NCBI GenBank assembly: GCA_963699135.1 | Contig: OY969415.1 | Location: 1,355,450 to 1,419,449 of the forward strand | Reading direction: 5' to 3' | Length of the DNA stretch: 64,000 bases | Source of the DNA: an uncultured Armatimonadetes bacterium | GTDB lineage: Bacteria > Armatimonadota > Hebobacteria > Hebobacterales > Hebobacteraceae | Shown: positions 1,949-39,789 of the stretch, in pieces | How the letters are laid out: each line of letters begins with the position of its first letter | How positions within the stretch are numbered: the first letter of the stretch is position 1 | Made by a program: the position numbers and the translations under genes | Notes under the pieces: model-generated | What the model saw: only the letters and a program-made list of their open reading frames with translations | Database searches by the model: none | What the model was told of the DNA's origin: nothing

Positions 1949-2236
1949 CGCGTGGCATGACCGCCACTCCTATGTCACCCCGAGGGAGGCGCTGCCACTG
2001 GGCAGCGGCGACCGTGGGGGTCTCGGCCTGGCCCTCTGAGGAGGGGGTGCCCGCCCGCAATGTCATTCCGAGCCGTCCGCCGAAGGCGGACGAGAGAGGA
2101 ATCCATTCCGGAAGTCGGCGTCCGCCGAGGCGGACGCCACTCCTGCCGTCCCGTAGCGTACCGCAGAGTGGGTCCGCGTGGGCCATTATAGCACGCTCAA
2201 CCGGGGAGAGAGTTCGCTGCGGGCGGCGTCCGGCTA

Positions 2237-4315: not shown

Positions 4316-4375
4316 TTCGCTCGGGTCAAATGGGGAGACGGGGCCCCGAGGGGGGCCCCGTCAGTGTTCACGTTC

Positions 4376-6344
4376 TCAGTTGGCTCGTAACACCCGGTCT
4401 CCCGTCGGCCCAGGCCGGCTACTGCCGCGCCGTTTCCCGAGGGAGCCTAGTCGACTCACGTCCCTGCTTCGATGCTTGGCAGCATCGAACGTCTGGTTGC
4501 TGGCAAGAGGCAACGGGACCGGATCACCCATCCACACATAGCCATAGTCGTTGAGCAGGTCGAATGGGAAGGGTCGGGGCTGCGTCACATCGGACCGGTT
4601 CCGAAGCCCGATGCGCCACCAGATGAGGTTCGAGGCGGTGCCAGGAAGCTGCGCCTTGAACTCTTTCACCAGGTCGACGGTGAAGGTGTTCTTCCCCGGG
4701 ATCATGCCGGGCACGCGCTTCTCGAAGGTGCGATCTTTGGGGAAGGTTCTATCCGGATCGCGTGCCAACTGCACGATGGCCTCGTCGGCGCCGATTGGAT
4801 CGTAGAGAGAAAAGGTGGCGATATTGGTCGAGGAGACCGCAACGCTGACGGTCTTAGGCGGTGCGACGGCCGTCAGCTTCGCCGTCGGCGGCGAAAACTG
4901 AGTGTCGCGAGCCAGCCGCCACTCAGAGGCCCCGGTGGTCAGCTTGTACTGGAAAGCGACGACCGGCTTGATCTGGTAGTAGTAGGTAAACCCTGGTTGT
5001 AGCCCGCCGTCAAGGAAAGTCCACGTTATCGCCGTGTTCGAGACGACGATACCGAGCGTCCCAGTGCTCGTGGCTCTCGTGAAGGCGAACTGGGGGGAGG
5101 CTTCCGAGGGGTTCTCGATGGTGATGCCGACCGTGAACTGCACCGAGGGCGACATGTCGATGAAATGGTTCTGCGCCAGCAGCTCCATGCCCCCAATGAC
5201 GTTGGTCAGCTGACCGTTCCGGATCACCTCGTAGCCGGCCAGCCGGTTCTTCTCGGTGCCGCTGTATGGGATCCAACTGACGACGACCGCGGGCTGCGCC
5301 GGATCCGAGGAGGCGTATCTCGTGACGATACCGTTCGACAGGTTGCTCGCCTGGAAACCGGGGGCCGCGGTGTCGCCTTCCTTCAGGCCGCTGCTGGTCG
5401 AGGCCAGCTCGGCGACTCCCAGGATCGCGGCTGCGGTCAGGATCAGGTTGTGCGCGCTCTTCCGCTGGCGCTGCGTTCGCTGAGGAGTCGCGGCGGTCGT
5501 GCCGTTAGGGAGCTGGTAGACGGCCCTCAGATGGTCGCCCGTGCGAAGCGGCGGGCCCTGAACGATAGTGGCATAGGAGCCAATCGGGCTCGCCTCGGTG
5601 ATCTCGACCATGCCGATGCGCAGGTTGTCGCGCACCGCCACCATCTTCATGCCTGGCTCGACGCCGGCCCGGCCTCCCACATTGAGGAAGACCGTGGCGT
5701 CACGGGACCACAGCACCATCGCCGTGACCGTGGGCCGCGTCCTCATTTGCTGGACCGCGTCGAAGGCCGCCTGCTGCAAAGCCTTCGTAATCAGCGTATC
5801 ATCGCTCGCCTCGGTCGATGCGGGCCCGCGCGAGGTGATGAGGGCGCCGTTCGTCCCGGCCTGGGCGAGGCGATCGAAGAGCAGCACCGCCAGCGTCACT
5901 TCGCCGTAGCGGCCGTCCTTGCTCTGCACGACGCGCGCAACCCGCACCTGGCCCGTAACCGCCATATTCACTTCCAGCTCGGTGGCGAATCGCGCCAACT
6001 CCTGGTCGGAGAACGGAGGCTTGTATCCGAGGTTGCGAAGCCACATCTCGGAATCGGCCTTGGGGAGGACGTCGAGGTTGAGCCGGTCGCGCAACTCTGT
6101 CGATACCGCGTCGGCCGCCTCTTGCCCAAAGGTCTCCAGTCGGTATCCGCTTCTATTCTCGAACGGCACTACCGCGACAGACTGCGTGGCCGAGGGCCCG
6201 CGTTGACCCCATGCCTCCTGCGGTAGCGATCTGCGCACCTGCCGGTACCGCGCCCAGTGCTAGTAACGCCGCAGAGCAGAGGAAGGCCCCGGTCATGCCG
6301 GGCGCGATTGCTCGGGACACTGCCCCCAGTGAGAACATGCGCAT
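4376..6344 (-). CDS. Secreted/lipoprotein with a TolB-N/LpoB-like N-domain (VAVVPFENRSGY) and Ig/FN3-like C-terminal domains. A probable frameshift lies near 6200.
   Basis: The 620-aa ORF 4376-6238 has no signal peptide. The overlapping out-of-frame ORF 6153-6344 encodes a good signal peptide (MRMFSLGAVSRAIAPGMTGAFLCSAALLALGAVPAGA). I therefore infer a frameshift between the two. Confidence 0.45.
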
Positions 6345-6686
6345 AGTCGGTCGTCTCCTTCGATACGAACTCTAGACCGCCGACGCGAGAATCGAGTCGG
6401 AGGCACTGCCCCCGCTTGCGGCCAGCGATCCGGACGTAAGCCGCGCCCGCCTGCGCGGCTCTACCTCGCGCTTGAACAGCAGACCCCTAACCCTGGGACC
6501 ACCGAGCTAGATACGTCAGGCTGCGTCAAGACCCGCGCCACAGCGACTCGCCAACGCTGCCTCATTCTCGATGCCGTCTTGCAGCGACGGATTCTACCAC
6601 ACGCCCCTATCGTTGTAAAGCAAGCGTTTCGGCCGCCCCGCGGTCCCCGTAACTGCGGCCGGCAACGCGTGGCGCATGGCGCCAAA

Positions 6687-7313
6687 CTAGCGGCGGTCGG
6701 CCGCTAGGCAGCCGGCCGCTTTCTTCACCTCTTCCCAGATGCGATCGAGCTGCCGCTTCGCCGCCTCTAGCCCCTGGGTGGTGTCTACTACCCAGTCGGC
6801 CTGCGGCAACTGCGCGTCCGTGGGCATCTGCGCGGCGATCCGCTGCCTTACCTCCGATTCCGAGAGACCATCGCGAGCCACCACCCGCCGCACTCTCTCG
6901 TCCTCGCTGGCCCACACCACGACCAGGCGGTCGACCAGGCTGCGGCCGCCGACTTCCAGCAGCAGTGGAGCTACCACGCAGGCGATGTCGGTTCCTCCCT
7001 CGCTCCGCAGTCGCTCCAGCCGCTTTCGGACCTCGGCCATGATGGGAGGGTGAGTGAGGGCATTCAGCCTCGCCACCGCCTCGGGATCGCCAAAGACCAT
7101 CCCGGACAGCTTGCGGCGGTCGAGGCTGCCATCGGGCCGTAACACCTCCCGCCCGAAGGCCGTCGCCACCTCTCCCAAAAGAGGAGAGCCCGGGCCCATC
7201 AGATCCCGGGCTACCTCGTCTGCATCGATGACCGCCGCGCCGCGGCTGCGGAGGAACTCCGCCGCTACTGACTTTCCGCTTCCGATTCCGCCGGTGATTC
7301 CGAGGGTGACCAT
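6687..7313 (-). CDS. coaE: Dephospho-CoA kinase
   Basis: 208 aa. It starts with the CoaE P-loop MVTLGITGGIGSGKS and is CoaE-like over its whole length. Confidence 0.85.
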   Translation of the reverse strand: MVTLGITGGIGSGKSVAAEFLRSRGAAVIDADEVARDLMGPGSPLLGEVATAFGREVLRPDGSLDRRKLSGMVFGDPEAVARLNALTHPPIMAEVRKRLERLRSEGGTDIACVVAPLLLEVGGRSLVDRLVVVWASEDERVRRVVARDGLSESEVRQRIAAQMPTDAQLPQADWVVDTTQGLEAAKRQLDRIWEEVKKAAGCLAADRR

Positions 7314-8661
7314 TCCGCGCTCGCAGGCTCAGCCGTCTCGCCTTCGGATTCGCTCGTCTGCTCCAGGCCGGGCTCGCCGACGCCCGCCGCCGCCTGGTCT
7401 TCCTTCGCCCTGGCGTCGGCTTCCGCCGCCGCCTCCTCGAACATGTTGCCGACCAGGTCGCCGATGGTGACTCGGCCGCTGGCCTGCTCCCGATCCATGT
7501 AATCCTTCAGCTCGCGCCGCTCTTGCGCTTGCTGCACTTGTCGCAGGCTCAAGGTCATGCGCCGCTCGGCCGGCCGGATGCTCATGATCTTGGCCTCTAC
7601 CGTCCCGCCCGCGGCCAGCGCATCCTGCGCGCGCTGCCCCCGGCCCCCGGGCAGCTCCGAGTTCGGGATGATCCCCTCGATGCCGCTCTCGAGTCGGACG
7701 AAGGCGCCGAAAGGCACCACCCGCGTCACCGTTCCCGAGACCATCTGGCCGATCTTGAAGGTATCCCGTACCTGCTCCCATGGATCCGGCAGTATTTGCT
7801 TTAGACCGAGCGAGATGCGATTCTGTTCCTTGTCGTGCCGAAGCACGATGACGTCGATCTTGTCTCCGACTTTCACCACGTCGCTCGGGTGGTTGATTCG
7901 CGTCCACGACATCTCGGTGATGTGCAGCAGGCCGTCTACTCCCCCGATATCGACGAACGCGCCGTAATCGGTAAGGCGGCGTACCACGCCCTTGTAGATC
8001 CGGTTCTCTTCGAGGGTGGAGAGGGTCTGATCGCGGCGCTTGCGCCGCTCCTCCTCGACTGCGTCCTTCTGGGAGACGACCACTCGCTTGCGCGCCCGGT
8101 CGACTTCCACGATCTTCACCCGGAGCGACTGCCCCACGAACCGGTCGAGCGCATGCACGTTCTTGGCTCTCACGTGGGAGGCGGGCAGGAAACCACGCAT
8201 CCCCAGGTCGACCACCAGGCCGCCCTTGACGCGGTCGGTCACCATCGCGCTCATGACCTCACCGGTCTCGAACGCATTCGTGAGCCGCTGCCACACGCTC
8301 TCGTAGTCCGCCTTCTTCTTGGAGAGTACGGGGTTGCCCTCGTCGTCCTCCGGCCGGACCACGTAGACGGCGACGCGATCCCCAACCACCAGGGCCTTGC
8401 CCTCTTCGTTGGTGCCGCCGGCCAGCTCTGCGACCGAGATGTGGCCTTCGGATTTGGTGCCTACGTCCACCAGCGCGCCTTGCTCGTCGATGTGTACGAT
8501 CAGCCCTTCGACGATCTGCCCGGCGGCCAATGGGTTTGCGGGCGCTTCGAGCGACTGGGTATCAGGGGCTTCAGCGTTTGCTGTTGGTGTCTCTGGAGTG
8601 GTGTCGTCTGCGGCGGTCTGCTCGGGTCCCGGTGCTTCTTGCACGCTGTCGTGCTCGTCCA
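7265..8661 (-). CDS. rpsA: 30S ribosomal protein S1
   Basis: Contains repeated S1 domains (e.g. GQIVEGLIVHIDEQGALVDVG, GEVMSAMVTDRVKGGLVVDLG). The ORF track extends to 8794, but the likely start is the internal ATG at 8661 (MDEHDS), which is preceded by GAGGAAGG. The C-terminal tail is acidic. Confidence 0.85.
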
Positions 8662-8991
8662 TGATGCAGCCTAACCTTCCTCGCCGGGCCGCACCAGTGC
8701 GAAAAGCAGACCGGGCGCCGGTCCCGCTTCCCTGCCCCTGGAAGAGTCGTGCCTCTTCCCGCTGCCTGCGGCCAAGCATGTGGGAGCGCGGCAAACTACG
8801 GCCGCCTCACCACGCAAAGTCGTGGGCCCGTCAACGAGCCCAGTTTCACGGAACGGACCTCTCGGAAGCTGCTTGCCCCCAACCATCAACCGCTCAGCAG
8901 AACTGGGCGCCCTTCCGTCGGCTCATCCGTGCAGTGTCCCCTTGTTTCGACAGCGCCCTGCGCCTCACCTTCACCCCCCCCAGAGGCTACC

Positions 8992-11656
8992 CTACGCCAC
9001 AGGCGCCATTTGCAGCCAGTTGGAGCCGGCCTTGGTGTCTACCTTCAGGGGCACTTTCAGGTCATAGGCGCGCGACATGCACTCCTCGACGAGCGCCGCC
9101 GTCTGGCGCAGCTCCGGCTCCGGCACTTCCAGCAGCAGCTCATCGTGGACCTGGAGGATCATCTTCGCGCCGAGCCTTTGCGCGATTAGTTGCTCGCTCA
9201 CGCGCAGCATCGCCTGCTTGATGATGTCGGCCGCCGTGCCTTGCATAGGGGTGTTGATCGCCATCCGCTCGGCCGCCGCCCGCAGCGCCGCGTTGCGCGT
9301 GTTCAGCTCCGGCAGGCTTCGCCTGCGGCCGAACAGGGTGCGGACTTCGCCTGTCTCACGCGCCTGCTTGGGCATTTCCTCTATGTACTCACGCACCCTG
9401 GGGAAGCGGGCGAAGTACCGGCTGACATAGCGCGTCGCTTCCTCCCGCGGGAATGCCCATCTCCCGCGCCAGCCGGAAGTCGCTGATCCCGTAGGGGATG
9501 CCGAAGTTCACCATCTTGGCGAAGGCCCGCATCTCCCGCGTGACGTGGTCGCGGTCAACGCTGAAGATCTCCATCGCCGCGGCCAGGTGCAGATCCTCGT
9601 CCTCCTGGAAGACCTGGATCAGGTTCTCGTCGCCGGTGATGTGGGCGAGGATGCGCAGCTCGATCTGCGAGTAGTCGGCGGAGAGCAGCAGATGACCGGG
9701 CAGGCCGGGGACGAAGGCGCGGCGGATCTCCGATCCCAGCTCGCTGCGAATCGGGATGTTCTGAAGGTTCGGATCGCTGCTGCTCAGGCGCCCCGTCGCC
9801 GTCACCGCTTGGTTCAGCGATGTGTGCAGCCGGCCCGTCCCGGGGTTCACCAGCCGCGGCAGCGCGTCCACGTAGGTGGACTTGAGCTTCGTGATCTCCC
9901 GGTACTCCAGAATCCGGGCGACGATCTCCTGCTCCGACAGCCCCGCGAGCACATCGGCGTCTGTCGAGAACCCGGTCTTGGTGCGCTTGGTCTTGTCGGG
10001 CGGCAGCTTCAGCTTCTCGAACAATATCCGCTGGAGCTGCTTGGGCGAGCCGATGGTGAACTCCTCCCCCGCGAGCGCGTAGATGTCCCGCTCCAGCTCG
10101 GTGACTCTCCCGCCGAGGCGGGCCGACAGCGCCTCCAGCGCGGGCACGTCGATGGCGACGCCGATCTGCTCCATCTCCGCCAGCACGGTGACCAGGGGCA
10201 TCTCTAGATCGCCGAAGACACTTCGCAGTTCCAACTGGTCGAGCTGCGGCTGAAGCGTGCTCTGCAGCTCCCGGATCTCGCGCGCCTCGGCGGCCGCCCG
10301 GCTGGGCGCGGACCACTCGCCCAGCGATAGCTCCGCCTGTCCCCCGGTCTGTAGGTGATCGAACGCGGCGGAGTTGAGGTCATGCCTGCGGGCGGGATTC
10401 ACCAGGTAGGAGGCGATCATGGTATCGAAGCTCACGCCGCCGAGCGCTACCCCGCGCCGCGCCAGCAGGATGATGCTGCGCTTCAGGTCGTGGCCCACCT
10501 TGGAGATGGACGGCGACCCCAGCGCGGCCTTCAGCGGCGCCAGCAGCGCGTCGAGTTTGGTCTTGCCTCCGAGCACGATCGCAGGCTGGTCGCCCACCAG
10601 GAAGCAGAGGCCATGCAGTTCCGCCCGCATCGCCGACGCCGGGTCGGCCAGCGGATGCAGGATGAACTCCTGCGCCGTGCCCAGCTCGGCCGCCAGCTTC
10701 TTGGCCTGGTCGACGCGCTCGATCAGCCGGTGCTCTTCGCTCACTTCCACCCGCGCCGGCTCCAGCTTTGGGATCAGCGTGCGGAAGTCGAGGCGGCGGA
10801 AGATCTCCGCCAGGCGCGCCGCCTCCGGGGGACGTCGCCGCAGCGCCTCCTCATCCAGCTCGATTGGCAGATCACGCACGATGATCGTCAGGTCCTTCGA
10901 GCGCCGCGTCAGTTCGGTGTAGGCGGTCAGCGCATCGCCGATGCGCGGCGGCTTCACCTCGTCGGCATGGGCGAGGACGTTCTCCAGGTCGCCATACTTG
11001 ACGACCAGCGCGGCCGCGGTCTTCTCCCCTATCCCCGGCACGCCGGGGATGTTGTCGCTGGTGTCGCCCCGCAGCGCGCGGAAATCCGGCAGGCGCTCGG
11101 GCGGGAAGCCGTATCGCTTCATCACCGCCACGGGATCGTAGATCACGGTGTCGCTTATGCCGCGGCGAGTCATCATCACGGAGACGCGGTCGGACACGAG
11201 TTGGAGTTCGTCGAGATCGCCGGTGACGACCAGCACGCGGCAACCGGCCTGCTCCCCCTTTAGCGAGAGCGTGCCGATGATGTCGTCGGCCTCATAGCGC
11301 TCCATCGAGTAGATGGGGATGTGCATGGCTTCGAGAATCTCGTAGGCCATGCCGATCTGCGGCCCCAACTCCGCCGGCATCTGCTGGCGGGTGGCCTTGT
11401 ACTCGGGGTAGCTCTCGTGCCGGAAGGTGGGAGTGGGGAGATCGAAGGCCACCGCCACCAGATCGGGCTGCTCCTCCTCCAGAATCTTGAGGAGCATGGT
11501 GGTGAAACCATAGGCCCCGTTCGTCACCTCGCCCTTCGCGTTCGTCAGCGGGGGTAGGGCGAAGAACGCGCGGTAAAGCAGGCTGTTGCCGTCGATCAGC
11601 AGCAGCTTGCGAGGCGCGGCATCCGGCGCTGGGTTTTGCTCGGGCGGATCGATCAC
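8992..11656 (-). CDS. polA: DNA polymerase I (5'-3' exonuclease, 3'-5' exonuclease-like and polymerase domains), interrupted by one frameshift near 9415
   Basis: The 755-aa ORF 9389-11656 ends inside the palm domain (..FGIPYGISDFRLAREMGIP). The 134-aa ORF 8992-9396 carries the PolA C-terminus (RAAAERMAINTPMQGTAADIIK..QVHDELLLEV). At the junction the sequence ATTCCCGCGGGAGGAAGCG contains one extra C in a CCC run. Removing it gives an uninterrupted, PolA-like IPREEATRYVSRYFARFPRVREYIEEMPKQ. Confidence 0.85.
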
Positions 11657-30002: not shown

Positions 30003-30965
30003 CTACGCGACGTAGTCGCGGATGAGCAGGAGGTTCTCGGGAGGGGTCTCGTAGGGGACGGCGCCGGTGCCGAGGAGGAGGTTGGGCTGCCCGGCGGCAA
30101 GGGCGACGACCTCGTCGACGGCGCGCAGTATCTCTGACTTCGTGCCTCGGGTGTACACCCTTGGGTCGAGGTTCACCCTAACCTTGACGTTGGGGTGAGA
30201 GGCCATCCGCCTGAGAAACTCCCGGCGGTCGGTTTCGGCGGGGCAGATCACGAAGTCGGTGCCGGTCTCGAGCATGGGTTCGATGATGGGCGCGGTGTCG
30301 CCGCCGATGATGCAGGGGACGGCGTGCCCGGCGGCGGTCCCCACCTGCTGCATGGTTGCCTTGAGCGAGGGCAACTCGACCTCGCGGAACTGAGTTGGCG
30401 AGAGCAGGGGCGGGGCGGCGGCGGATTCGAAGAAGGCGACGTCGAGTCCCGCGGCGATGACGGCCGCGGCGAAGGCGACTTGCCCGGGGACGAGTAGAAG
30501 CAGGAACTCGCGGGCGCGGGCGGGGTTAGCGCCACGGAAGTCAGAAGCTCATCCAGCCCGAGCAGGCTGGAGGCGATCGAGAAGGGGCCGCTCACCGGCA
30601 GTCGGACATCGGCCTCGGGGAACTCGTCCTTCAGTCGCCGGGCCACGCGGATGCCAGGGGGAGGCGGCCCGCGGTCGCCGGGTCGAAGGGCGCGAGGTGC
30701 AGCGCCTGCTCGAGGGAGTCGAACACCGGCTGGGTGACGGCAGGGATACCATTTCCCTTGGGTGATCGACGCGCGCCCCGTAGGCCTCGGCTTCGAGGTT
30801 GTAGATGTCGATCCCGATCACTACGGGGAAGTGGCGATAGCGCAGATAGGCCTCGCGGTGGGCCTGCACGAGCAGTTCCTCGCTGCGCGATACCTCCCAC
30901 GGCGTGCGGCCGATCAGGCGGGCGGCGTGCTCGTAGACTGAGATCGAGAAGGGGATCCTCGCCAC
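30003..30965 (-). pseudogene. URO-D/MtaA-like family protein (second paralog), broken by at least 3 frameshifts
   Basis: The fragments 30549-30980, 30631-30978, 30248-30646 and 30003-30374 carry consecutive URO-D-fold segments. These run MARIPFSISVYEHAARLIG.., ..ARRLKDEFPEADVRLPVSGPFSIASSLLGLDELL.. and ..AGHAVPCIIGGDTAPIIEPMLETGTDFVICPAETD.. Confidence 0.55.
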
Positions 30966-31207
30966 ACTGAACCTCCACAAGAGATTACTGCGCGGGGTCG
31001 CGTCCTCCCTCGCTCCCGCCGCCTGTCTGACTAATGATACGCGGCGGGGATCGATGTGCCTCTATTGTCACAGGAGTCGAGGCATCGTCGCCTAACCTGC
31101 CGCTTGCCTGTAGCAATATTGCCGCGGAGTGAGCACGCTGGGCGCGGAAGAGCGCTCTCTGACATGCGAGAGCCAGCACCCGGCGCCGCGAGACCAGGAG
31201 GAAACAG

Positions 31208-31588
31208 ATGCCAGCGTTTCTCGATCCGTTCCCGGGGCTGGTTCCCCGGAAGATGACGAAGTCGGAGTTGGTCAGGGCCCTGCGGCTGAACCTCGCGGCG
31301 GAACTGGAGGCGGTGCACCTCTACACCTCGCACGCGGAGGCCGCGGATGATCCGCTGACCAAGAAGATGCTGCTGGACGTGGCCGACGAGGAGAGGGTGC
31401 ACGCGGGTGAGTTCCTGGAGCTGATCCGGAGGCTGGCGCCGGAGGAGCAACAGCTTCTCGACGAAGGCAGCCAGGAAGTGCAGGCGATGGCGGCGGGCAT
31501 GGCGGCGGAGCCGCCGCCGGCCGCGACGATGCCCGACCTGACGATGACAGTCGGCAGCCTGCGAGAGGCGCCGAAGGAGGGTGAGTGA
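31208..31588 (+). CDS. Encapsulin cargo: ferritin-like protein (EncFtn/Flp type) with a C-terminal encapsulin targeting peptide
   Basis: 126 aa. It has two E-x-x-H motifs (EAVHLY, EERVHAGE) typical of encapsulated ferritins. It has a flexible Ala/Pro linker and the C-terminal TVGSLREAP, which matches the TVGSL/GSL cargo-loading consensus. Confidence 0.75.
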   Translation: MPAFLDPFPGLVPRKMTKSELVRALRLNLAAELEAVHLYTSHAEAADDPLTKKMLLDVADEERVHAGEFLELIRRLAPEEQQLLDEGSQEVQAMAAGMAAEPPPAATMPDLTMTVGSLREAPKEGE

Positions 31589-31589
31589 G

Positions 31590-32411
31590 ATGCGCTACCT
31601 ACCACGCGAAGCCGCGCCCATCGGCGACGCAACCTGGGGGATGATCGAAGAGGCGGTGGTGGGGCCGGCGAAGATGCAGCTCGCGGGCCGACGGCTGCTC
31701 GACATCCAGGGGCCGTTCGGGCTCGGGATGAGAGTGCTGGACCACAAGGAACGGGAGACGGCGGCCGAGGCGAGCTTCGGCGACGCGAAGGCGAGGATGT
31801 CGGCGCCGGAGACGACGCCGATTCCGTTGATCTACTCGGAATTCACGCTGTCCATCCGCGAGATCGCGGCGGCGGAAGAGCGGGGCAGCCTGCTAGACCT
31901 CGATGCTCCCGCGAAGGCCGCCATCGCTTGCTCGCGGCTCGAAGACAATCTGATCTTCGGCGGCAACAAGGAGCTGCGGATCGATGGCCTGATGACCGCG
32001 CCGAAGGCGTCGAAGGTGAAGCTCGGCGACTGGGAGCAGATGGGCCAGCCGATGGAGGACCTGATCAAGGCCGCGAACGCGCTGGACGCGGCCGGCTTCC
32101 CGGGCCCCTACAGCGCGGCACTCGCGCCGTCGCTGTTCAACGCGCTCTACCGGCGGTATGAGGAGGCGAGCCTGACCCAGCTCGAGCACGCCCGGCAGTT
32201 GATCACGGGAGGCCTGGTGAAGGCGCCGACGCTGGCGTCGGGCGGTGTGGTGCTGGCGTCGCTGCGGCACTTCGCCTCGCTGGTGATCGGCCTGGACATG
32301 ACGCCGGCGTTCGTCGGGCCGACACCGACAGGCTACCAGTTCGTGATCATGGAGAGCATCACGCCCAGGATCACGGTGCCGGAAGCGATCTGCGTGCTGA
32401 CTGGGAAGTAG
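31590..32411 (+). CDS. Family 1 encapsulin nanocompartment shell protein (linocin M18-like, HK97 fold)
   Basis: 273 aa. It matches the Thermotoga encapsulin pattern: GRRLLDIQGPFGLG versus GRKFVDVEGPYGW, IPLIYSEFTLSIREI versus LPLIELRATFTL, EDNLIFGG versus EDEVIFRG, and GPYSAAL versus GPYTLV. An AAGGAGG ribosome-binding site lies 9 nt upstream of ATG 31590. The stop of the cargo gene overlaps this start region. Confidence 0.8.
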   Translation: MRYLPREAAPIGDATWGMIEEAVVGPAKMQLAGRRLLDIQGPFGLGMRVLDHKERETAAEASFGDAKARMSAPETTPIPLIYSEFTLSIREIAAAEERGSLLDLDAPAKAAIACSRLEDNLIFGGNKELRIDGLMTAPKASKVKLGDWEQMGQPMEDLIKAANALDAAGFPGPYSAALAPSLFNALYRRYEEASLTQLEHARQLITGGLVKAPTLASGGVVLASLRHFASLVIGLDMTPAFVGPTPTGYQFVIMESITPRITVPEAICVLTGK

Positions 32412-32434
32412 CGAGCGAACACGGAGAGGACGAG

Positions 32435-32776
32435 ATGGCAGACACCATCACTCGCGAGGAGCTGAAGCGGAAGATAGAGGCGGGGGAGGACTTCCTGCTG
32501 ATCGACGTGCTGCTGACCGATTCCTATCCGCGGGAGCACCTTCCGGGCGCGATCAACCTCCCGCTGTACGAGATCGGTGACGCAACCACGGCGTCGATCC
32601 CGAAGGACAAGGAAGTCATCGTCTACTGCGGGAGCTTTGCGTGCCAGGCGAGTCCGGCGGCGGCCGCGAAGCTGAGAGAGATGGGGTTCACGCGCGTGCT
32701 CGACTTCGAGGGCGGGCTCGCGGACTGGAAGGATGCCGGCTACCCGATGGAGCGAGCGGAGGCGGCGAAGCGCTGA
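32435..32776 (+). CDS. Single-domain rhodanese-like sulfurtransferase
   Basis: 113 aa with the active-site loop VIVYCGSFACQAS (the Cys in CGS is catalytic). Confidence 0.75.
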   Translation: MADTITREELKRKIEAGEDFLLIDVLLTDSYPREHLPGAINLPLYEIGDATTASIPKDKEVIVYCGSFACQASPAAAAKLREMGFTRVLDFEGGLADWKDAGYPMERAEAAKR

Positions 32777-32794
32777 GGAGGAAAGGGGAGGGCG

Positions 32795-33123
32795 ATGCCG
32801 GCGGTGATGGAGATCAGCGTGTTCCCGGCGGGCAAGCAGGGCGCCAGCTTGGGAGACGTGATGGTCGAGGTGCTGAAGGTCGCGGAGAAGCACGGCGCGA
32901 ACTATGAGCTGACGGCGATGGGGACTTGCCTGGAGGGCGAGCTCAGACGCGCTGTTCGCGATCGCGCGGGAGATGCACGAGGTGTGCTTCGAGCTGGGCT
33001 ACCCGCGGGTGCTGACGACGATCCGGGTGGACGACCGGCGGGACAAGGCGCTGACGATGAAGCACAAAGTGGATTCGGTGAAGGAGAAGCTGGCGAAGTC
33101 GGCGCTGCATATCAGTGAGAGTT
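32795..33123 (+). CDS. MTH1187/YkoF-family (DUF77) protein with one frameshift near 32945
   Basis: ORF 32795-33118 starts [42 protein letters not shown]. The +1 frame continues [50 protein letters not shown] and reaches a stop at 33121-33123. Confidence 0.6.
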
Positions 33124-33135
33124 GAGGTATCTGAA

Positions 33136-33186
33136 GCGAAAAGAGCCGGAGCGCGCGATGCGCGCTCCCGGCTTCGTCGTTTGTTG
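33136..33186. terminator. Bidirectional rho-independent terminator between the convergent YkoF-like and amidohydrolase genes
   Basis: The hairpin is GCCGGAGCGCGC-GAT-GCGCGCTCCCGGC with one bulge. It is followed by TTCGTCGTTTGTT on the + strand and preceded by AAAAGAG (which reads CTCTTTTCGCTTC on the - strand). Confidence 0.55.
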
Positions 33187-33210
33187 CTGCGGGTCGTGGA
33201 GCAGCGGCCG

Positions 33211-33991
33211 CTACTTCAGCCCGAAGAGTTTGGTGGCGTTGCCGCGGTTGACTCTCTCGCGGATCGCCGGGGAGGCGCCGACGGCGTCGAAGAGGGCGTC
33301 GTAGAACTTGAAGTAGGGCTGGAAGCCCTCGTTGTCTGTCTGAAGACACTGACGTCGCTGGCGAAGAGGAGCTTTGTTCAGGCTGGACTCGTCGAGGTTG
33401 CCGTTGGGGGCGAACATCTCTCGCCCACATCATGAGGGAGCGTTGGTAGGCGGTGCCGCCGCTGAGTTCGGCGTAGACGTTGGGCACGGACCACGTGATC
33501 TTCCAGGCTTCCTCCCACCAGGGGTTGCCGAAGTGGGCCATGAGGATCTTGAGGTCCGGGTGGCGGCGGCTCATGCAGTCGATGGCGGCCGGGGCGCATG
33601 AGGGTGATGTCGGTGTGGGCGGGCGGGCTCGAAGACGCCGATCCCCAGGTAGCCGGTGTGGAACATGGCGACTTTGCCCTTGGTCGGAGATGGCGGCGTA
33701 GAGCGGATCGTAGCGGGTGTCGCCGTAGGAGAACTGAGGGTCGATGAACTTGATGCCGGCGGCGCCGCCGTCGAGGATCTCGTTGATCTCCTTGACCGTG
33801 ATCTTGTCGATGTCGATCCAGGGAACGGGGATGATGAAGTCGGGCAGGGCCCGATAGGCCTCCATCGTCGGCTCGGGGTCCTGGATGAGGAGCACCCTTT
33901 CCACGCCCCGGTCGCGGCATTTCTTGACGTAATCCTGGGGCGATCCCTGGAGCTTCGAGAAGTCACCATGTACGTGCGCGTCGATTCGCAT
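33211..33991 (-). pseudogene. Amidohydrolase-2 family metal-dependent hydrolase (copy 1 of a tandem pair), with at least 3 frameshifts
   Basis: The N-terminus MRIDAHVHGDFSKLQGSPQDYVKKCRDRGVERVLLIQDPEPT..GIKFIDPQFSYGDTRYDPLYAAISDQG lies in ORF 32999-34102. The middle and C-terminal parts (KVAMFHTGYL.., PAAIDCMSRRHPDLKILMAHFGNPWWEEAWKITWSVPNVYAELSGGTAY.., ..NRGNATKLFGLK) lie in other frames. Confidence 0.6.
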
Positions 33992-34047: not shown

Positions 34048-34825
34048 TCAGGCGAGTCCGAACAGCTTGAGAGCAGTGCCCCGGTTGATCCGCTCCCGCC
34101 ACTCCGGCGAGGCGCCGATGGCATCGTAGACAGCGTCATAGAACTCGAAGTAATCCTCGAAGCCCTCGTGCTCCCTGAAGACGCTCATGTCGCTGGCGAA
34201 GAGGAGCTTCTTGAGGCTGTCCTCGTCGAGCACGCCATTGGGGGCGAAGGTCTCGGCCCACATGGAGATCGACCGCTTGTAGGCAGTGCCGCCGCTGAGC
34301 TCGGCGTAGACGTTGGGGACGGACCACATGATCTTCCAGGCCTCTTCCCACCAGGGGTTGCCGAAATGGGCCATGAGGATCCTGAGGTCGGGGTGACGGC
34401 GGCTCATGCAGTCGATGGCGGCGGGTCGCATGAGGGCGATATCGGTGGGGCGCGGCGGGCTCGGAGCGGCGGGCGAGGTAGCCGGTGTGGAACATGGCGA
34501 CTTTGCCCTTGGCGGAAATGGCGGCATAGAGTGGGTCGTAGCGCGTATCGCCATAGGAGAACTGGGGGTCGATGAACTTGATGCCGAGGGCGCCGGCGTC
34601 GATGATCTCGTTGATCTCGCGCACGGTGACCTTGTCGATGTCGACCCGCGGCACCGGGATGATGAAGTCGGGCAGGGCTTTGAAAGCGGCGAGGGTTGAG
34701 TCCGGCTCGGAGATCAGGACGACCTTCTCGATCCCCTGGGCGCGGCATTTCTTCACGTACTCCGCGGGCACGCCCTGGAACTTGCTGAAGTCGCCGTGAA
34801 TGTGGGCGTCGATACGCATATCCAT
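34048..34825 (-). CDS. Amidohydrolase-2 family metal-dependent hydrolase (copy 2, a paralog of 33211-33991), with 1-2 frameshifts near 34450-34500
   Basis: ORF 34136-34825 (MDMRIDAHIHGDFSKFQGVPAEYVKKCRAQGIEKVVLISEPDST..KGKVAMFHTGYLA) and ORF 34048-34554 (..ALMRPAAIDCMSRRHPDLRILMAHFGNPWWEEAWKIMWSVPNVYAELSGGTAYKRS..RINRGTALKLFGLA). It is roughly 80% identical to copy 1. Confidence 0.6.
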
Positions 34826-36201
34826 CTCAGCACCTCCGGAGTGAGATCAAACCGCGCGAGTAAATCGAATCCGGTCCCGCGCAACAACCTGTCAGGGATG
34901 GTTCCGCCCGCGCAGGGGTTTCCCTTTGTGGCGAAGGCGCTACTCGGCGTCGCGCAGGCCGGGGCGCGCCACCAGGAAACGGCGGCGGCGACGAGACAGA
35001 TGGCGCCGTCGATGGCGACGGCCCATCGCGGCCCCAGCCACTGGGCGGCGGCCCCGATCTGGAGGTTGCCCAGGGGTGACATGCCGGCGAAGACGAAGGC
35101 GCGCAGGCCCATCACTCTCCCGCGAAGCTCATCGGGAGGGGATTTCTGCAGGATGGTGTTCGAGGTGGTGTTGAACGACATCATGCCGAGGCCGACGAAG
35201 AAGAGAAAGGCGACGGCGATGGAGTAGGAGGAGGCGCTGGCGAGGAGCATGAGGCCGATGGGGAAGACGAAGGAGCCGAGGACGGTGATGGCGCCGATGC
35301 GGAAGCGGTGCCCGATGGCGGTCATAGTCATGGCGGCGAGGAGGGAGCCGAAGGCCGGGGCGGACATGAGGAACCCGTATCCCCGGGGGCCGGTGTGGAA
35401 GACTTCCTGGGCGAAGAGGGGCATGAGGGTGGCGTAGGGCATGGCGAAGAGGCTGGAGAACCCGGTGAGGATGAGCAGGGCCTTGGCGACAGGCTGGCTG
35501 CGCACCCACTTCACGCCGCCGCCGATGTGCTCGAACATGGAGCCGGACATGCGGGGGCGAGGGGGCCGGGGGGTGATGGTGGTGAGGATGACGATCAGGG
35601 GCAGGAAAGAGATGGCGTTGATGAGGAAGCAGCCGGCCATCCCGGCGGCGGCGAGCAGGATCCCCGCGACCGAAGGCCCGATTACCCGGCCGGAGTTGAA
35701 GGCGGACGAGTTGAGGGCGACGGCGTTGAAAATGTCCTCTCGCTCCACCAGGTCCATCACCATGGACTGACGGGTGGGCATGTCGAAGGCGTTGATGACG
35801 CCGAGGAGGGCGGCAAGGGTCATCACGTGCCAGACGCGCACCGTGTCGGTGTAGACGAGGAGCGCGAGGACGCCCGCCTGGAGGGCGGCCAGGCTCTGGG
35901 TGATGAAGACGATGCGGTGCTTGCTGAAGCGATCGGCAACGACCCCGGCAGGAAGGGAGAGCAGCAGAATGGGAAACGCGCCGCAGGCGCCGACGAGGCC
36001 GAGGTAGAGGGGTGACTTAGTGAGCTGGTAGACCAGCCACCCCTGGGCCGCGTTCTGCATCCAGGTGCCGGTGACGGAGAGGACGAGGCCGATCCAGAAT
36101 CGGCGGAAGTCGCGATGGCGCAGCGAACGCAGGGCCATCGGCCACCGCGTCTGGCGCGCTTCCTCTGCGATCTCCGGAGGGACCTGGAACTCGTCAGCCA
36201 C
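34753..36201 (-). CDS. MFS transporter (EntS/YbdA-like 12-TM)
   Basis: Mostly hydrophobic 12-TM protein with ..DFRRFWIGLVLSVTGTWM.. and ..AGVVADRFSKHRI... The last roughly 70 aa overlap the adjacent amidohydrolase gene. They may be a frameshift artefact. Confidence 0.65.
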   Translation of the reverse strand: MADEFQVPPEIAEEARQTRWPMALRSLRHRDFRRFWIGLVLSVTGTWMQNAAQGWLVYQLTKSPLYLGLVGACGAFPILLLSLPAGVVADRFSKHRIVFITQSLAALQAGVLALLVYTDTVRVWHVMTLAALLGVINAFDMPTRQSMVMDLVEREDIFNAVALNSSAFNSGRVIGPSVAGILLAAAGMAGCFLINAISFLPLIVILTTITPRPPRPRMSGSMFEHIGGGVKWVRSQPVAKALLILTGFSSLFAMPYATLMPLFAQEVFHTGPRGYGFLMSAPAFGSLLAAMTMTAIGHRFRIGAITVLGSFVFPIGLMLLASASSYSIAVAFLFFVGLGMMSFNTTSNTILQKSPPDELRGRVMGLRAFVFAGMSPLGNLQIGAAAQWLGPRWAVAIDGAICLVAAAVSWWRAPACATPSSAFATKGNPCAGGTIPDRLLRGTGFDLLARFDLTPEVLRWICVSTPTFTATSASSRACPRST

Positions 36202-36265
36202 CGCGGACCTCGGCCGATGGCGGGCCGGTCGACTCCGAGGGGATCACGTCAACACCGCGCGCCCG

Positions 36266-37078
36266 CTAGCTCGGCTTCAGTCCCGCTTTCCGCAGGGCTT
36301 CTTTCCCTTCCTCTCCGGTCAGGAAATCGACGAAAGCGCGAGCGACCGGTTGCTGAGGTCCGGCGCCAAGGGCGGCGGCGCGATAGGGGACGGGAGGGTA
36401 GAGATCGAGTGGCATCTCGCCCGCGATGCGGATGGTCTTGGGGGGCGATCCACCCTCGAGCAGGCAGTCTCGGAAGACGACGGCGGCGTCGGCCTTCTTC
36501 TCCACGATGTCGCTGAGAACCATGACGCCGGACTTGGGGGCGGCGACCCTAGCTCGCACCTTCTCCCACAGCCCCAGCTTCTCGAAGGCCTGCTTGGCGG
36601 CGGCGCCGAGGCTGCTCTTCGCCGGATCGTCGATGAGGAGGCGCTTCACCGCGGGCTTCGCCAGATCGTCGAGCGACTTGAGGCCGACTCCGCCCTCGGC
36701 GGCGGTGACGACGGCCAAGGGGTAGGTGTTGATGGCGAACGTCTTCGCGTCGTCGCGGTTCACGACGCCGGCGCGGACGAGGGAGGCCATCTCGATATCG
36801 CCGGCGGTGATGACTATCGTCGGGCCCTTGCTGGTGGCGGGGAGTTCGGAGGGCTTGTAGGTCTGGAACGCGAACTGGACCTTGGGGTGCTTGGCCTCAT
36901 AGGTGGCGATCACTTTCCTGAAGGGGCCGCCGAGCACGCAGGGGGTGTAGAGTGCGACGGTCACTGGCTCGGCGGGTTCGGGCGGCGGGGCTGGGGGTTT
37001 GCTCGCGCCGCCGCAGCCCCCCAGGAGGAGGGCTGCGGCGAGCAGAACTGCAAAGCCGACCAGCGCGGCCAGGCGCAT
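36266..37078 (-). CDS. modA: Molybdate/tungstate ABC-transporter periplasmic substrate-binding lipoprotein (ModA/WtpA family)
   Basis: It has a lipoprotein signal (..LLLGGCGG) and ModA-family architecture along its length (PVTVALYTP.., TIVITAGDIEMASL.., DAAVVFRD). No modB or modC gene lies adjacent. Confidence 0.65.
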   Translation of the reverse strand: MRLAALVGFAVLLAAALLLGGCGGASKPPAPPPEPAEPVTVALYTPCVLGGPFRKVIATYEAKHPKVQFAFQTYKPSELPATSKGPTIVITAGDIEMASLVRAGVVNRDDAKTFAINTYPLAVVTAAEGGVGLKSLDDLAKPAVKRLLIDDPAKSSLGAAAKQAFEKLGLWEKVRARVAAPKSGVMVLSDIVEKKADAAVVFRDCLLEGGSPPKTIRIAGEMPLDLYPPVPYRAAALGAGPQQPVARAFVDFLTGEEGKEALRKAGLKPS

Positions 37079-37560
37079 TACTTCGCCTTTGCCTTCGCCT
37101 TAGTCTTCGACTCGGCGACGATCTGCTTCACGACTGTCTCGAAGTCCTGGCGCGACCAGTAGACGTCCATGCGCTTCAGAAAATCGACGCTCTCGGTCTT
37201 GCCGTTCGCCCGCTTGATGTCCCACTTCGTCTTGCCATTGACGAAGACGCCGGAGCAACTCAGGCCCGGTCTTCATCCAGGCCTTGCGTCCCTCGGGCGT
37301 CTGCTGATCGTAGAGCTCGAGGGTGACGTCTTTGGCATGGGCCTTCTGGTACTTCTTCAGGTAGTCGGCGATGAACTTGTGCTGGGAGCTGAACGGGTAG
37401 TAGGCCTGCACAAGCACGGGGGTCTTCTGCTGAGCCTTCGCGACGGTGGCCTTGGGGGCCGACTTCTGCCTGGCATCGGCGCCAGCGAACGCAACCTGCA
37501 CGGCGACCGCCATGATGATGCAGGCGCAGAACAGGGACAGTCTCGACTTCATCCGCATCC
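37078..37560 (-). CDS. Thioredoxin-fold/DsbA-like secreted protein with one frameshift near 37265
   Basis: ORF 37100-37948 contains MRMKSRLSLFCACIIMAVAVQVAFAGADA..YYPFSSQHKFIADYLKKYQKAHAKDVTLELYDQQTPEGRKAWMKTG. The shifted frame continues LSCSGVFVNGKTKWDIKRANGKTESVDFLKRMDVYWSRQDFETVVKQIV..* and ends with TAATG overlapping the modA start. Confidence 0.4.
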
Positions 37561-37587
37561 TTCTTCCTCCTCGTGAGGTGCTACTTG

Positions 37588-38390
37588 CTATATTCGACGC
37601 GGGCGGAGTGGGTCCACCCGTTCCCAGTTGCTCTTCTGTCCACAGGCCGGACAATCGGGGTTCTTGGCGATGGGATAGGTATCGAACTCGGTATCGGCGC
37701 CGCTCCAGACGAGGAGCTTGCCCTTCAGGTTTTCGCCCACGCCGGCGAGGTACTTCAGCGCCTCGATTGCCTGGAGGCAGCCGATCACGCCCGGGGTGGC
37801 GCCGAGCACGGGGAAGAGGGCGGGCGGGGGCGCGCTGGGGAAGAGGCAGCGCAGGCATGGGGTTTCGGGGGAGTGGATGAAAGTGAGCCGGCCCTCCAAA
37901 CCCCAGACGCTGGCGTGAACGAAGGGGAGGTGCTTGCGGATCGCGCACTCGTTCAGCAGGTAGCGGGTGGGGTAGTTGTCCATGCAGTCGAGGATGAGCT
38001 GGGCGTCGCCGACCAGGTCATCGACGTTGTTGGCCTCGATGCGGGTGGAGATGGCGGTCACGTTGATGGTGGGGTTCAGCTCGCGGAGGGTAAGCTGCCC
38101 GGAGACGGCCTTATTCATCCCGATGCGAGAGTCGCTGTGCAGGATCTGGCGGTTCAGGTTCGATAGCTCCGGCTTGTCGAAGTCGCAGAGGGTGAGGTTG
38201 CCGACGCCGGCCACCGCGAGGTAGATGGAGGCCGGGGATCCCAGGCCACCGGCTCCCGCGACGAAGATGCGGGAGGCCTTGATCTTGGCCTGGCCGGATT
38301 CGCCCCAGCCGCCGATCATCATCTGCCGGTGGTATCTCTTCAGGTCGATCTCGGTGAGTGCAGCCACTACGTTGTCCTTTGCGTGCGGTC
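37588..38390 (-). CDS. moeB: ThiF/MoeB-family E1-like adenylyltransferase (molybdopterin-synthase or sulfur-carrier adenylyltransferase)
   Basis: It has LKRYHRQMMIGGWGESGQAKIKASRIFVAGAGGLGSPASIYLAVAGVG (a nucleotide-binding GxGxxG) and a C-terminal zinc motif CLRC..CPAC. The upstream part of the track ORF (to 38544) overlaps the porin gene and is probably not translated. Confidence 0.7.
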
Positions 38391-38399
38391 TGTCGTAGC

Positions 38400-39789
38400 C
38401 TAGTAGACGACCTGCAACTGCACGATAGCGGAGTTCCCATCCCACTTCGTGAACTCGGAGAATTTCGGCTCCGCGTCGCGCTTCTCGAAGGCGAAGGTCA
38501 GCCGGGTGGCCTTGTCCAGGTTGTACCAGTAGCCGAAGCTCCATCGCTTGAACAGGTCATTGGGCGCGGCGCGATTCTCATCGTAAGTATCGTATTTCGC
38601 GAAGAGCAGGTTCGGCTGCTTCTTCGCGATGGGATGACCGACCTGGCCGTACCAGCCGCGGACGTCTCTGCCTTTGTCGTTGCCGGTGACGAATTCGCCC
38701 AGGAACTGGGTGCCGCCCCAGTGATAGCGGGCGCTCACGGCGTTGCGGTCCTGGCGGGTGCGGGCGGTGCCCTCGTTGTTGGTGCCGGTGTAGCCGGAGA
38801 GGGCGACGGAGCCGCTCTTCAGGGGGAAGTCAACGCGGGCCATCAGGTTCTGGTGGTTGTTGTTGTCGGTCACGTCGATGCCGGTGCCGTTGAACGCGCC
38901 AACATCGAGCTTCGGTGCCTTCGGCGACTGACGGTAGTTGAGATCCAGCCCCAGGTCCCGCTGATCGGGGAAGAGCCGGTCCATGAAGAATGCCGCGCTC
39001 GCCCGACCACAGTTCCTGCGTCGGCTCCTCCAGCTCGTACCCCCAGGGAAGCGTCATTTGTCCCATGCGAACGCGGGACTCGGGGGTGGCCTGATAGTCG
39101 ATGTAGGCGCTTCGCAGTTGAGCCTTGCTGCCGGGGCCTTTGCCGGTCTCTTTCGAGTCGAACTGCATCTCGATGCGGTAGGAGGTGCGGTCGCTGACCG
39201 GTCCGCGAACGTTCACGCGAGCGGTTCGGACCAGGAACTCCTTCCGGCCGAGAGTCGCCTTGTCGTCGCGGAAGCGCAACTGCATGTAGCCGTCGATCTG
39301 GTGCTGCTTGCGCTCGGCCTCGACTTTGGCGAGGCGCTGCTGCGTATCCTTGAGGGCGGTGGCGAGGTCGTCGACGCGGGCGCCCATGGTCACGAGTTCG
39401 GTGCGGAACTCCTGGATCAGCTTCTCGACGCGGGCCACATCCTCTAGCGTCGCGCCGGCAGGAACAACGGGCGCGGCGGCGGTCCCTTCCTCGGCGGGGA
39501 GGGTCTCGGCGCGGGCGATCTGCTGGAGAGCCTGCCCCTGCTCCTGATAGGCTTTGCCCAATCCTTCGACGGCGCGCAGGGTCAGCGAGGCGGCCTCGAA
39601 CCGGGTGAGCTGCTGGGTCCAATCAGCGAGAGCTCCCTTGGGATGCCCGATCAGCAGGCCTGCGCGCGCGAGCGCGTCGAGGTCCTGGAACTGCCAGTCC
39701 GCCGGCCCGATGACCGGAGCCGCGGCCCAGGCCGAGCCGAAGCACAAGAGGATAAGCAGTACATTGATTGCGATCTGTCGCTTCAGCAT
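38400..39789 (-). CDS. Outer-membrane porin with an N-terminal SLH-like domain, a coiled coil and a C-terminal beta-barrel (OprB/SlpA-like). One frameshift lies near 38950.
   Basis: ORF 38830-39789 has a signal peptide, a segment WQFQDLDALARAGLLIGHP and heptad-rich coil. ORF 38400-38984 has alternating beta-strand sequence ending ..NSAIVQLQVVY. Confidence 0.5.

Follow-up and report, generated by a model that had tools for sequence, protein, structure and literature searches.

A Family 1 ferritin encapsulin locus followed by rhodanese and MTH1187-family genes in an uncultured Armatimonadota bacterium

Family 1 cargos usually carry their targeting peptide on an Ala/Pro-rich linker. Ferritin-like cargo is loaded into Family 1 encapsulins by means of such a peptide at its C-terminus (PMC8346489), and in Myxococcus xanthus the cargo proteins EncB and EncC, which assemble as decamers with ferroxidase activity, fill the shell with ferric mineral (PMC11126975). 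The same C-terminal-peptide logic applies to the encapsulin/Flp system of Thermotoga maritima as well as to the EncFtn systems of Rhodospirillum rubrum and Haliangium ochraceum (PMC8346489). Rhodaneses, on the other hand, have been described next to encapsulins of Family 2A (e.g., Ab-RLD of Acinetobacter baumannii), where the rhodanese gene adjoins the shell gene with no sign that its product is encapsulated (PMC11284452, PMC8346489). These operons also hold a desulfurase cargo and a serine O-acetyltransferase, their rhodaneses average 162 amino acids and carry a CRSG/AxR loop, and all encapsulin-associated rhodaneses that the authors found fall, as they state, into one cluster, within four-gene Family 2A operons (PMC11284452). 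Here, we analyzed an encapsulin locus (31208-33125) located in a 64,000-nucleotide stretch of DNA from an uncultured Armatimonadetes bacterium (contig OY969415.1, G+C content of ~67%), hereafter referred to as the window, in which the genes of a ferritin-like cargo and a shell protein are followed by those of a rhodanese and an MTH1187-family protein.

We have good confidence in the following reading, whose parts were judged together: the locus would be a four-gene operon (31208-33125) with a core corresponding to an iron-storing, oxidative-stress-protecting Family 1 encapsulin of the M. xanthus EncA/EncC type, and with two accessory genes whose products are likely cytosolic. For the core, the family models pass their curated cut-offs, and EncA and EncC are its nearest relatives of known structure, the targeting peptide being part of the alignment; its function is assigned by homology. 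The operon is suggested by four head-to-tail genes on the same strand, by the short spacers between them (1, 23, and 18 nucleotides (nt)) and by a terminator-like hairpin after the fourth gene. Since the family models score far above the curated thresholds, no chance explanation is needed. All four genes noted in an earlier sequence-only reading of the window are present, on the + strand and at approximately the coordinates given there. The features of the locus are as follows:

31208..31588, + strand: EncB/EncC-family ferritin-like encapsulin cargo, 126 amino acids (PF22277 and NF058679 EncB_fam)
31590..32411, + strand: Family 1 encapsulin shell, 273 amino acids, HK97 fold family (Linocin_M18 and NF041155)
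32435..32776, + strand: single-domain rhodanese, 113 amino acids, loop CGSFAC (Pfam Rhodanese)
32795..33125, + strand: MTH1187-family protein, 109 amino acids after frame correction (Thiamine_BP and TIGR00106)
31070..31096, + strand: conserved upstream motif, candidate promoter or operator (recurrence in relatives)
33143..33174, no strand assigned: GC-rich hairpin, likely bidirectional terminator (terminator scan and fold)

The M. xanthus system (4PT2, 7S20, 7S8T) shares with this locus the type of targeting peptide, the NPF..LVPRKMT segment, the ferroxidase residues and the Ala/Pro-rich linker, while those of T. maritima, R. rubrum, and H. ochraceum are much more distant in sequence. In contrast to M. 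xanthus, the window has a single cargo gene directly 5' of the shell gene and two non-cargo genes 3' of it, and a search of its 64 kb brought up neither an EncD-like ferric reductase nor any further protein bearing a targeting peptide.

Shell and cargo of the compartment

In hidden Markov model (HMM) searches, by which the sequence-only reading had proposed to check the pair, shell and cargo both passed encapsulin/EncFtn models. The shell protein was matched by Pfam Linocin_M18 (PF04454, 208.7 bits, residues 1-258 of 273) and by the NCBIfam equivalog NF041155 encap_f1 (218 bits, cut-off 100), which agrees with the HK97-fold Family 1 shell proposed earlier. Its top matches in the PDB are solved Family 1 shells, the closest being M. 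xanthus EncA (4PT2/7S20, 161 bits, E = 4e-46) and the second a shell of the Quasibacillus thermotolerans type (6NJ8, T=4-type). The T. maritima shell (3DKT), with which the protein had originally been compared, scored 55 bits and is thus not the closest one. The nearest solved relatives build T=3 or T=4 shells; self-assembly into an icosahedral compartment around the cargo would be expected by homology.

A weak match of the same protein to Pfam Major_capside (20.8 bits, below the cut-off of 26.8) could indicate the HK97 major capsid protein of a prophage instead of an encapsulin. We regard this as extremely unlikely, given that the protein passes the encapsulin family 1 equivalog model, that a dedicated cargo gene with a targeting peptide lies directly upstream, that phage genes are absent nearby, and that the same cargo-shell pair recurs in more than 160 loci.

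The cargo protein passed the cut-offs of EncFtn-like in Pfam (PF22277, 35.4 bits, cut-off 27) and of EncB_fam in NCBIfam (NF058679, 118 bits, cut-off 90), and reached 85.9 bits with TIGR04535, under its cut-off of 125. Its closest solved counterpart is M. xanthus EncC (PDB 7S8T, E = 1.6e-23), the H. ochraceum EncFtn being much more distant (E = 2.7e-4), and the alignment with EncC spans the N-terminal NPF..LVPRKMT, the AEL and DEER.H ferroxidase residues, and the C-terminal peptide. AELE and DEERVH of the window stand opposite AELD and DEEREH of EncC, so that Glu and Glu..His of the ferroxidase center are kept. Two ExxH motifs had been pointed out in this protein; EERVH does match the ferroxidase motif of both EncC and a Pyrococcus furiosus protein, but the His of ELEAVH is replaced by Asn in both. 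By homology to EncC, one would expect decamers of the cargo protein, with the ferroxidase centers located between subunits.

The C-terminus of the cargo protein reads ...TMPDLTMTVGSLREAPKEGE, as already quoted in the sequence-only reading, and contains the targeting peptide MTVGSLR (nt 31544-31564), which sits on an Ala/Pro-rich linker and is followed by a 7-residue tail. In the alignment, the segment ...AAEPPPAATMPDLTMTVGSLR pairs with the EncC peptide LTVGSLR, in keeping with the TVGSL targeting peptide postulated for this cargo. A scan of all open reading frames (ORFs) of at least 60 amino acids in the window with a [LIVMTA][TS][VIL]G[SGDNA][LM][RK I]-type pattern had the cargo EncFtn as its sole match in 64 kb. 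The stop codon of the cargo gene (31586-31588) and the ATG of the shell gene (31590) are 1 nt apart; the overlap of the two genes that had been described exists solely for an alternative GTG start at 31581.

Conservation of the downstream genes among relatives

Loci for comparison were gathered by shell alignment (80 from species-representative genomes and 80 from metagenomes), with 14 more added via exact-protein look-ups, and their six-frame ORFs were searched with single sequences as well as with clade-built HMMs. Across the compared set of 169 related loci, the shell identity to the window is bimodal (29 loci at 55-96%, 140 below 50%, and none between), and those with at least 55% identity were considered as one clade. 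Once duplicates had been collapsed and one truncated contig dropped, the clade comprised 22 informative distinct loci; for the counts in distant loci at least 500 nt of downstream sequence were needed, which left 120 loci, all with < 50% shell identity. Where members of the close clade are named, they are Armatimonadota metagenome-assembled genomes (MAGs; L001, L004, P0026, P0036), and the distant group consists mostly of Anaerolineae, Planctomycetota, and Methanomicrobia; the lineage with the accessory genes is probably Armatimonadota.

The EncFtn-shell pair itself was present in 122 of the 126 distant loci with enough upstream sequence, and T[VI]G.[LM][RK] was found near the cargo C-terminus in every clade member. 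A rhodanese and/or MTH1187 gene lies directly 3' of the shell gene, on the same strand, in 18 of the 22 clade loci, but in none of the 120 distant ones. The adjacency, whose conservation the sequence-only reading had named as the point to be checked, is therefore kept within the clade and is not general. The clade loci are distributed as follows:

Rhodanese and MTH1187 after the shell gene (8 loci): L081, L001, L083, L167, L084, L004, L152, L171
MTH1187 alone after the shell gene (5 loci): L003, L087, L088, L093, L161
Rhodanese alone after the shell gene (2 loci): L168, L170
Rhodanese, then contig end (3 loci): L089, L091, L095
Neither accessory gene, convergent genes after the shell gene (4 loci): L085, L090, L092, L094

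The order and strand of the accessory genes are constant across the clade, and the flanks vary by sub-lineage (Polysacc_deac/Amidohydro_2, LVIVD-SLH/Pribosyltran, CxxCxxCC/TrmO_N, DUF6785/Cu-oxidase, or Prismane/flavodiiron protein). Because the surrounding genes differ between sub-lineages in this way, the block of three to four genes has been retained despite the loss of other synteny. When the proteins are compared pair by pair, the identities of the rhodanese (r = 0.77) and of MTH1187 (r = 0.67) correlate with shell identities no less closely than those of the true cargo (r = 0.65), a pattern that fits an ancestral operon with later losses.

Several points weigh against the four-gene reading. 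Four clade loci hold the two core genes only and each accessory gene can be missing alone, so that neither of them is obligatory, and gaps of ~220 nt between shell and rhodanese and of ~180 nt between shell and MTH1187 in several relatives mean that the accessory genes could have separate promoters. Neighboring genes that are simply inherited vertically would also be expected to diverge in a correlated manner, the taxon sampling is limited to metagenomic contigs, some of them short, and the frameshift in the MTH1187 copy of the window could reflect a genuine loss. Rhodanese and MTH1187 might then be unrelated passengers, inherited beside the encapsulin operon with no mechanistic or regulatory tie to it. 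The core-only loci, the independent absences, and the long gaps would suit such passengers, as would the lack of a targeting peptide in both proteins and the unrelated contexts (glutaredoxin, PCMT) in which the nearest non-encapsulin rhodanese relatives are found in Patescibacteria. We nevertheless find this somewhat unlikely, since the block can be followed over shell identities of 96% to 55%, a range in which all other flanking genes change, its order and strand never vary, and the MTH1187 subfamily is tighter (63-98% identity) than the shell (50-96%), with no member seen outside an encapsulin context. A functional tie of the accessory genes to the compartment is what we infer from this gene neighborhood.

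The surroundings of two relatives are of interest in their own right. In L168 (57% identity, positions 1-10825), the EncFtn-shell-rhodanese genes are flanked by those of a Prismane hybrid-cluster protein, a flavodiiron protein, a ferritin, a rubrerythrin, and OsmC, surroundings that amount to an oxidative/nitrosative-stress island. L161, which has MTH1187 and no rhodanese, carries ThiC together with an AIRS-domain (ThiL/PurM-like) gene 3-4 kb upstream (1-1285) and a TrmO_N-only gene 40 nt after MTH1187 (6347-6709); this arrangement could reflect a connection with thiamine or be due to chance.

Accessory proteins and limits of the locus

The rhodanese, whose gene starts 23 nt past the shell stop, is matched by its Pfam domain (PF00581, 62.3 bits) and has the catalytic Cys opening a six-residue active-site loop (CGSFAC, within YCGSFACQAS), and can be regarded as a putative sulfurtransferase of the rhodanese-like family. 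It reached no NCBIfam equivalog cut-off (best rhodanese_LYCAU, 52 bits vs. 115) and weakly matches the rhodanese domains of the MoeB and MoeZ models. A rhodanese gene immediately follows that of the shell in 13 distinct loci of the clade, and the clade rhodaneses contain the loop YC[AGT][STN][FL].C[QTM]AS with two invariant Cys in 14 of 14 cases. The last position of the six-residue rhodanese loop is usually Arg, Thr, or Ser, and is occupied here by the second invariant Cys; among solved structures, a C....C loop was noticed only in the uncharacterized BH2092 (3NHV).

The nearest rhodanese relatives outside the clade (~57% identity) belong to Patescibacteria and occur in unrelated contexts. 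These non-encapsulin relatives of the two-cysteine rhodanese were observed beside genes of a protein-L-isoaspartate methyltransferase (PCMT) and of a glutaredoxin/thioredoxin-like protein (L173, 3683-4904), and beside a protein-L-isoaspartate methyltransferase gene in a Candidatus Spechtbacteria MAG (L174, 4001-4987), contexts that hint at a function of such rhodaneses in redox processes or protein repair.

The locus had seemed reminiscent of the Family 2 encapsulins with desulfurase cargo, a likeness that turned out to be conceptual only, as there is no Family 2 shell and the rhodanese is of a different type. In contrast to Family 2A, whose cargo is a cysteine desulfurase with an N-terminal targeting domain, a rhodanese of 113 amino acids with the loop CGSFAC stands beside an iron-storage Family 1 shell, and no desulfurase gene adjoins that of the shell, a negative that covers the adjacent genes and not a screen of the entire window.

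After frame correction, the fourth protein matches Thiamine_BP (PF01910, 104.8 bits) and, over its full length, TIGR00106 (92.6 bits, cut-off 54.7, model positions 2-97 of 97). The membership in the MTH1187/TM0486 family (1LXN, 2EKY, 1YQH, 1LXJ) is supported by this full-length match and by the predicted fold alike, with an E value of 8e-16 for 1LXN. An AlphaFold2 model (mean predicted local distance difference test (pLDDT) score of 88) contains predicted ferredoxin-like beta-alpha-beta fold units. Within the family, binding of thiamine or a related ligand is known for some members only. Going by its title, as cited in PMC6393860, a paper on TM0486 reportedly connects a member of the MTH1187 family with thiamine binding and the oxidative response. 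The function of the family is poorly established ('possible thiamine binding protein', PMC6393860).

Compared with the solved members, the clade adds a C-terminal extension (A.QALHIRES), which starts where the chain of 1LXN stops, and the signature EMHEVCF.LGYPRV. The signature is common to clade MTH1187 and the tail ends most clade copies, both being absent from solved members and from non-encapsulin relatives; three encapsulin-linked copies, P0133, P0139, and a 103-amino-acid protein in L171, are without the tail. Every MTH1187 homologue with at least 61% identity and visible context adjoins an encapsulin, while the next outgroup, P0145 (KD3-62), does not.

Rhodanese and MTH1187 were also tried as canonical cargo and rejected: no GSL-type motif was found at the termini of any clade copy of either protein, a point on which the sequence-only reading had suggested that relatives be inspected, and in the window the pattern scan had picked out EncFtn alone. 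As neither has a targeting peptide, both are likely cytosolic non-cargo proteins. Canonical encapsulation of MTH1187 is unlikely also because its tail is modeled as a helix continuation and some copies lack it.

It could still be argued that MTH1187, via its tail, and/or the rhodanese bind the shell as a non-canonical secondary cargo or as a docking partner on its exterior. The retention of the tail in most clade copies and its absence elsewhere would speak for this, and there are precedents in the small secondary cargo EncD (PMC11126975) and in ferredoxins with an N-terminal TVGSL (PMC8346489). However, the tail is unlike an LTVGSLR-type peptide, has no flexible Ala/Pro linker and, in the AlphaFold2 model, prolongs the last helix with falling confidence without the linker-plus-peptide arrangement of cargo signals; with the tailless encapsulin-linked copies and the non-conserved rhodanese termini in addition, we consider such an association very unlikely.

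The sequence-only reading had placed a YkoF-like/MTH1187 gene downstream of the rhodanese, and the family assignment stands, but the gene is not one intact ORF and ends at 33125 rather than at 33123. Near 32944, one additional base disrupts the reading frame (window GAGCTCAGAC vs. GAGCT-GGAC in L081, L001, and L004), with frame 1 running to ...CLEGEL and frame 2 carrying on to ...HISES. The frameshift is probably an assembly error, because a public database protein (P0121) matches the frame-corrected product at 100% identity and many intragenic indels separate the window from L081 (96% identity; 58 alignment gaps in 10.6 kb, several of them changes in G-run length). The source contig (4.66 Mb) looks like the product of an error-prone long-read assembly. 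Indels relative to L081 inside coding regions were seen at window positions 30338-30757, 33373-33684, 34457, 34961, and 32944, and the frameshifted ORFs include a URO-D-like gene (30003-30980, - strand), both amidohydrolase copies, and the tail of the MFS gene.

On one side of the block lies a divergent intergenic region (30981-31207), on the other the GC-rich hairpin (33143-33174). The former contains the 27-nt motif ACAGGA..GGC.T..T.GCCTAAC (31070-31096; ACAGGAGTCGAGGCATCGTCGCCTAAC in the window), which occurs once in the 64 kb, with 0 expected in shuffles, and in its strict form also 5' of encFtn in L001, L081, and L084, with variants recognized by eye in L083, L004, and L161; we regard it as a possible promoter or operator for the four genes. 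No promoter was found in a scan for the sigma-70 consensus, and an Rfam scan of 30500-33600 (E ≤ 1) returned nothing and hence no riboswitch, thiamine pyrophosphate (TPP) included. At the other end, a terminator scan matched 33148-33168 on the minus strand and the region 33126-33195 folds at -33.7 kcal/mol (z = -2.5), with a stem at 33143-33174 followed by UUCGUCGUUUGUUG; the hairpin, located between convergent units, is likely a bidirectional terminator that ends the operon. In L152 (58% identity), two near-perfect palindromes lie just 5' of encFtn (7457-7514 and 7539-7580; arms of 26 nt at 92% and of 19 nt at 100% complementarity), with a common TGCATTA/TAATGCA core. The palindromes, which are absent from the window, might serve as operators or form a leader structure.

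Beyond the hairpin and convergent with the operon, a run of minus-strand genes (34753-38544) encodes a ThiF/MoeB-like protein, a small hypothetical protein, ModA, an MFS_3 transporter, and amidohydrolases. The longest ThiF ORF covers 37588-38544, compared with 37588-38390 as noted earlier, the small hypothetical gene (~37100-37560, - strand) has a lipoprotein-like N-terminus, and two tandem Amidohydro_2-type paralogues (33214-33991 and 34054-34819, - strand), each ~69-75% identical to the single L167 copy, are both split by frameshifts in the window, with L081 apparently also having two copies.

ThiF and ModA had been associated with the encapsulin genes, and a wider unit for iron/sulfur stress or for a thio-cofactor, made up of encapsulin, rhodanese, YkoF-like protein, ThiF/MoeB, and ModA, can be envisaged: all genes lie within 7.5 kb, ThiF/MoeB enzymes draw on rhodanese-type sulfur donors, the rhodanese weakly resembles the MoeB/MoeZ rhodanese domains while this ThiF has none, and ThiC with an AIRS-domain gene stands near the encapsulin in L161. 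The neighborhood analysis nonetheless largely refutes such a unit, to which we leave a slight chance. The entire run from ThiF to the amidohydrolases is on the opposite strand, convergent and past the terminator-like hairpin, and the synteny of ThiF, ModA, and MFS with the encapsulin is kept only in L081, L001, and L167, at shell identities of at least 80%; L083 and L004 lack ThiF and ModA within flanks of 8 kb, as do more distant clade members within the 5-8 kb available. ModA and the ThiF protein are better, and more simply, explained as a molybdate/molybdopterin pair, since ModA passes a molybdate-binding model and the ThiF-family protein, which reaches none of the NCBIfam equivalog cut-offs, has MoeB models as its nearest matches. 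On the grounds of strand, terminator, and synteny loss below 80%, both were ruled out as members of the system.

Proposed working and meaning of the locus

For the four-gene reading with an EncA/EncC-type core, the following working is proposed. The peptide MTVGSLR on its Ala/Pro-rich linker would tether the cargo inside the self-assembling HK97-fold shell, where the encapsulated ferritin would oxidize Fe2+ and deposit it as ferric mineral, thereby sequestering iron and limiting oxidative damage. Rhodanese and MTH1187 would be co-transcribed accessory proteins of the cytosol, most likely not cargo, that may share a regulon for oxidative stress and iron/sulfur homeostasis with the encapsulin. 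The rhodanese may handle persulfide or thiol sulfur, for example in Fe-S cluster repair or in the reductive mobilization of stored iron, and the MTH1187-family protein may bind a small ligand such as thiamine. An iron/sulfur-stress module that includes both proteins is put forward as a hypothesis, and both the stress genes around the L168 locus and the reported tie of TM0486 to thiamine binding and the oxidative response hint at a shared iron/oxidative-stress response of the accessory proteins.

A more specific version appears unlikely to us, namely that the two-cysteine rhodanese and the tailed MTH1187 are dedicated partners of the encapsulin, providing for instance a persulfide/thiol route that mobilizes iron or feeds Fe-S repair, while the tail of MTH1187 might dock on the shell. 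Such partners would be the Family 1 counterpart of EncD and of the Family 2A desulfurase-rhodanese pair.

The core is of a well-known kind, and its extension by rhodanese and MTH1187 genes in a Family 1 ferritin operon is described in none of the literature searched, the text of the 2021 encapsulin census and the 2024 rhodanese study included. No paper that combines encapsulin with thiamine-binding or with Armatimonadota was found in that literature, the examined publications on encapsulin and rhodanese concern Family 2A (further matches being judged by title or abstract), and the examined part of the 2021 census supplement has no PF01910 and no Armatimonadetes entry. A clade-conserved variant of the operon would not greatly surprise a specialist.

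The ferric reductase EncD of M. xanthus, described in 2024, shows that iron-storage encapsulins need release factors (PMC11126975). It is the only characterized release factor that we found, and the way in which iron leaves encapsulin stores, as well as the cytosolic partners involved, is largely an open matter. The rhodanese and the MTH1187-family protein offer two concrete, testable candidates for accessory roles beside an iron-storage encapsulin. If there is no link, the locus is one more Family 1 ferritin encapsulin; if the link is regulatory only, it would serve as a marker of an oxidative-stress/iron regulon in an almost uncultured phylum; and if the link is true, the poorly understood MTH1187/DUF77 family would gain a defined genomic partner.

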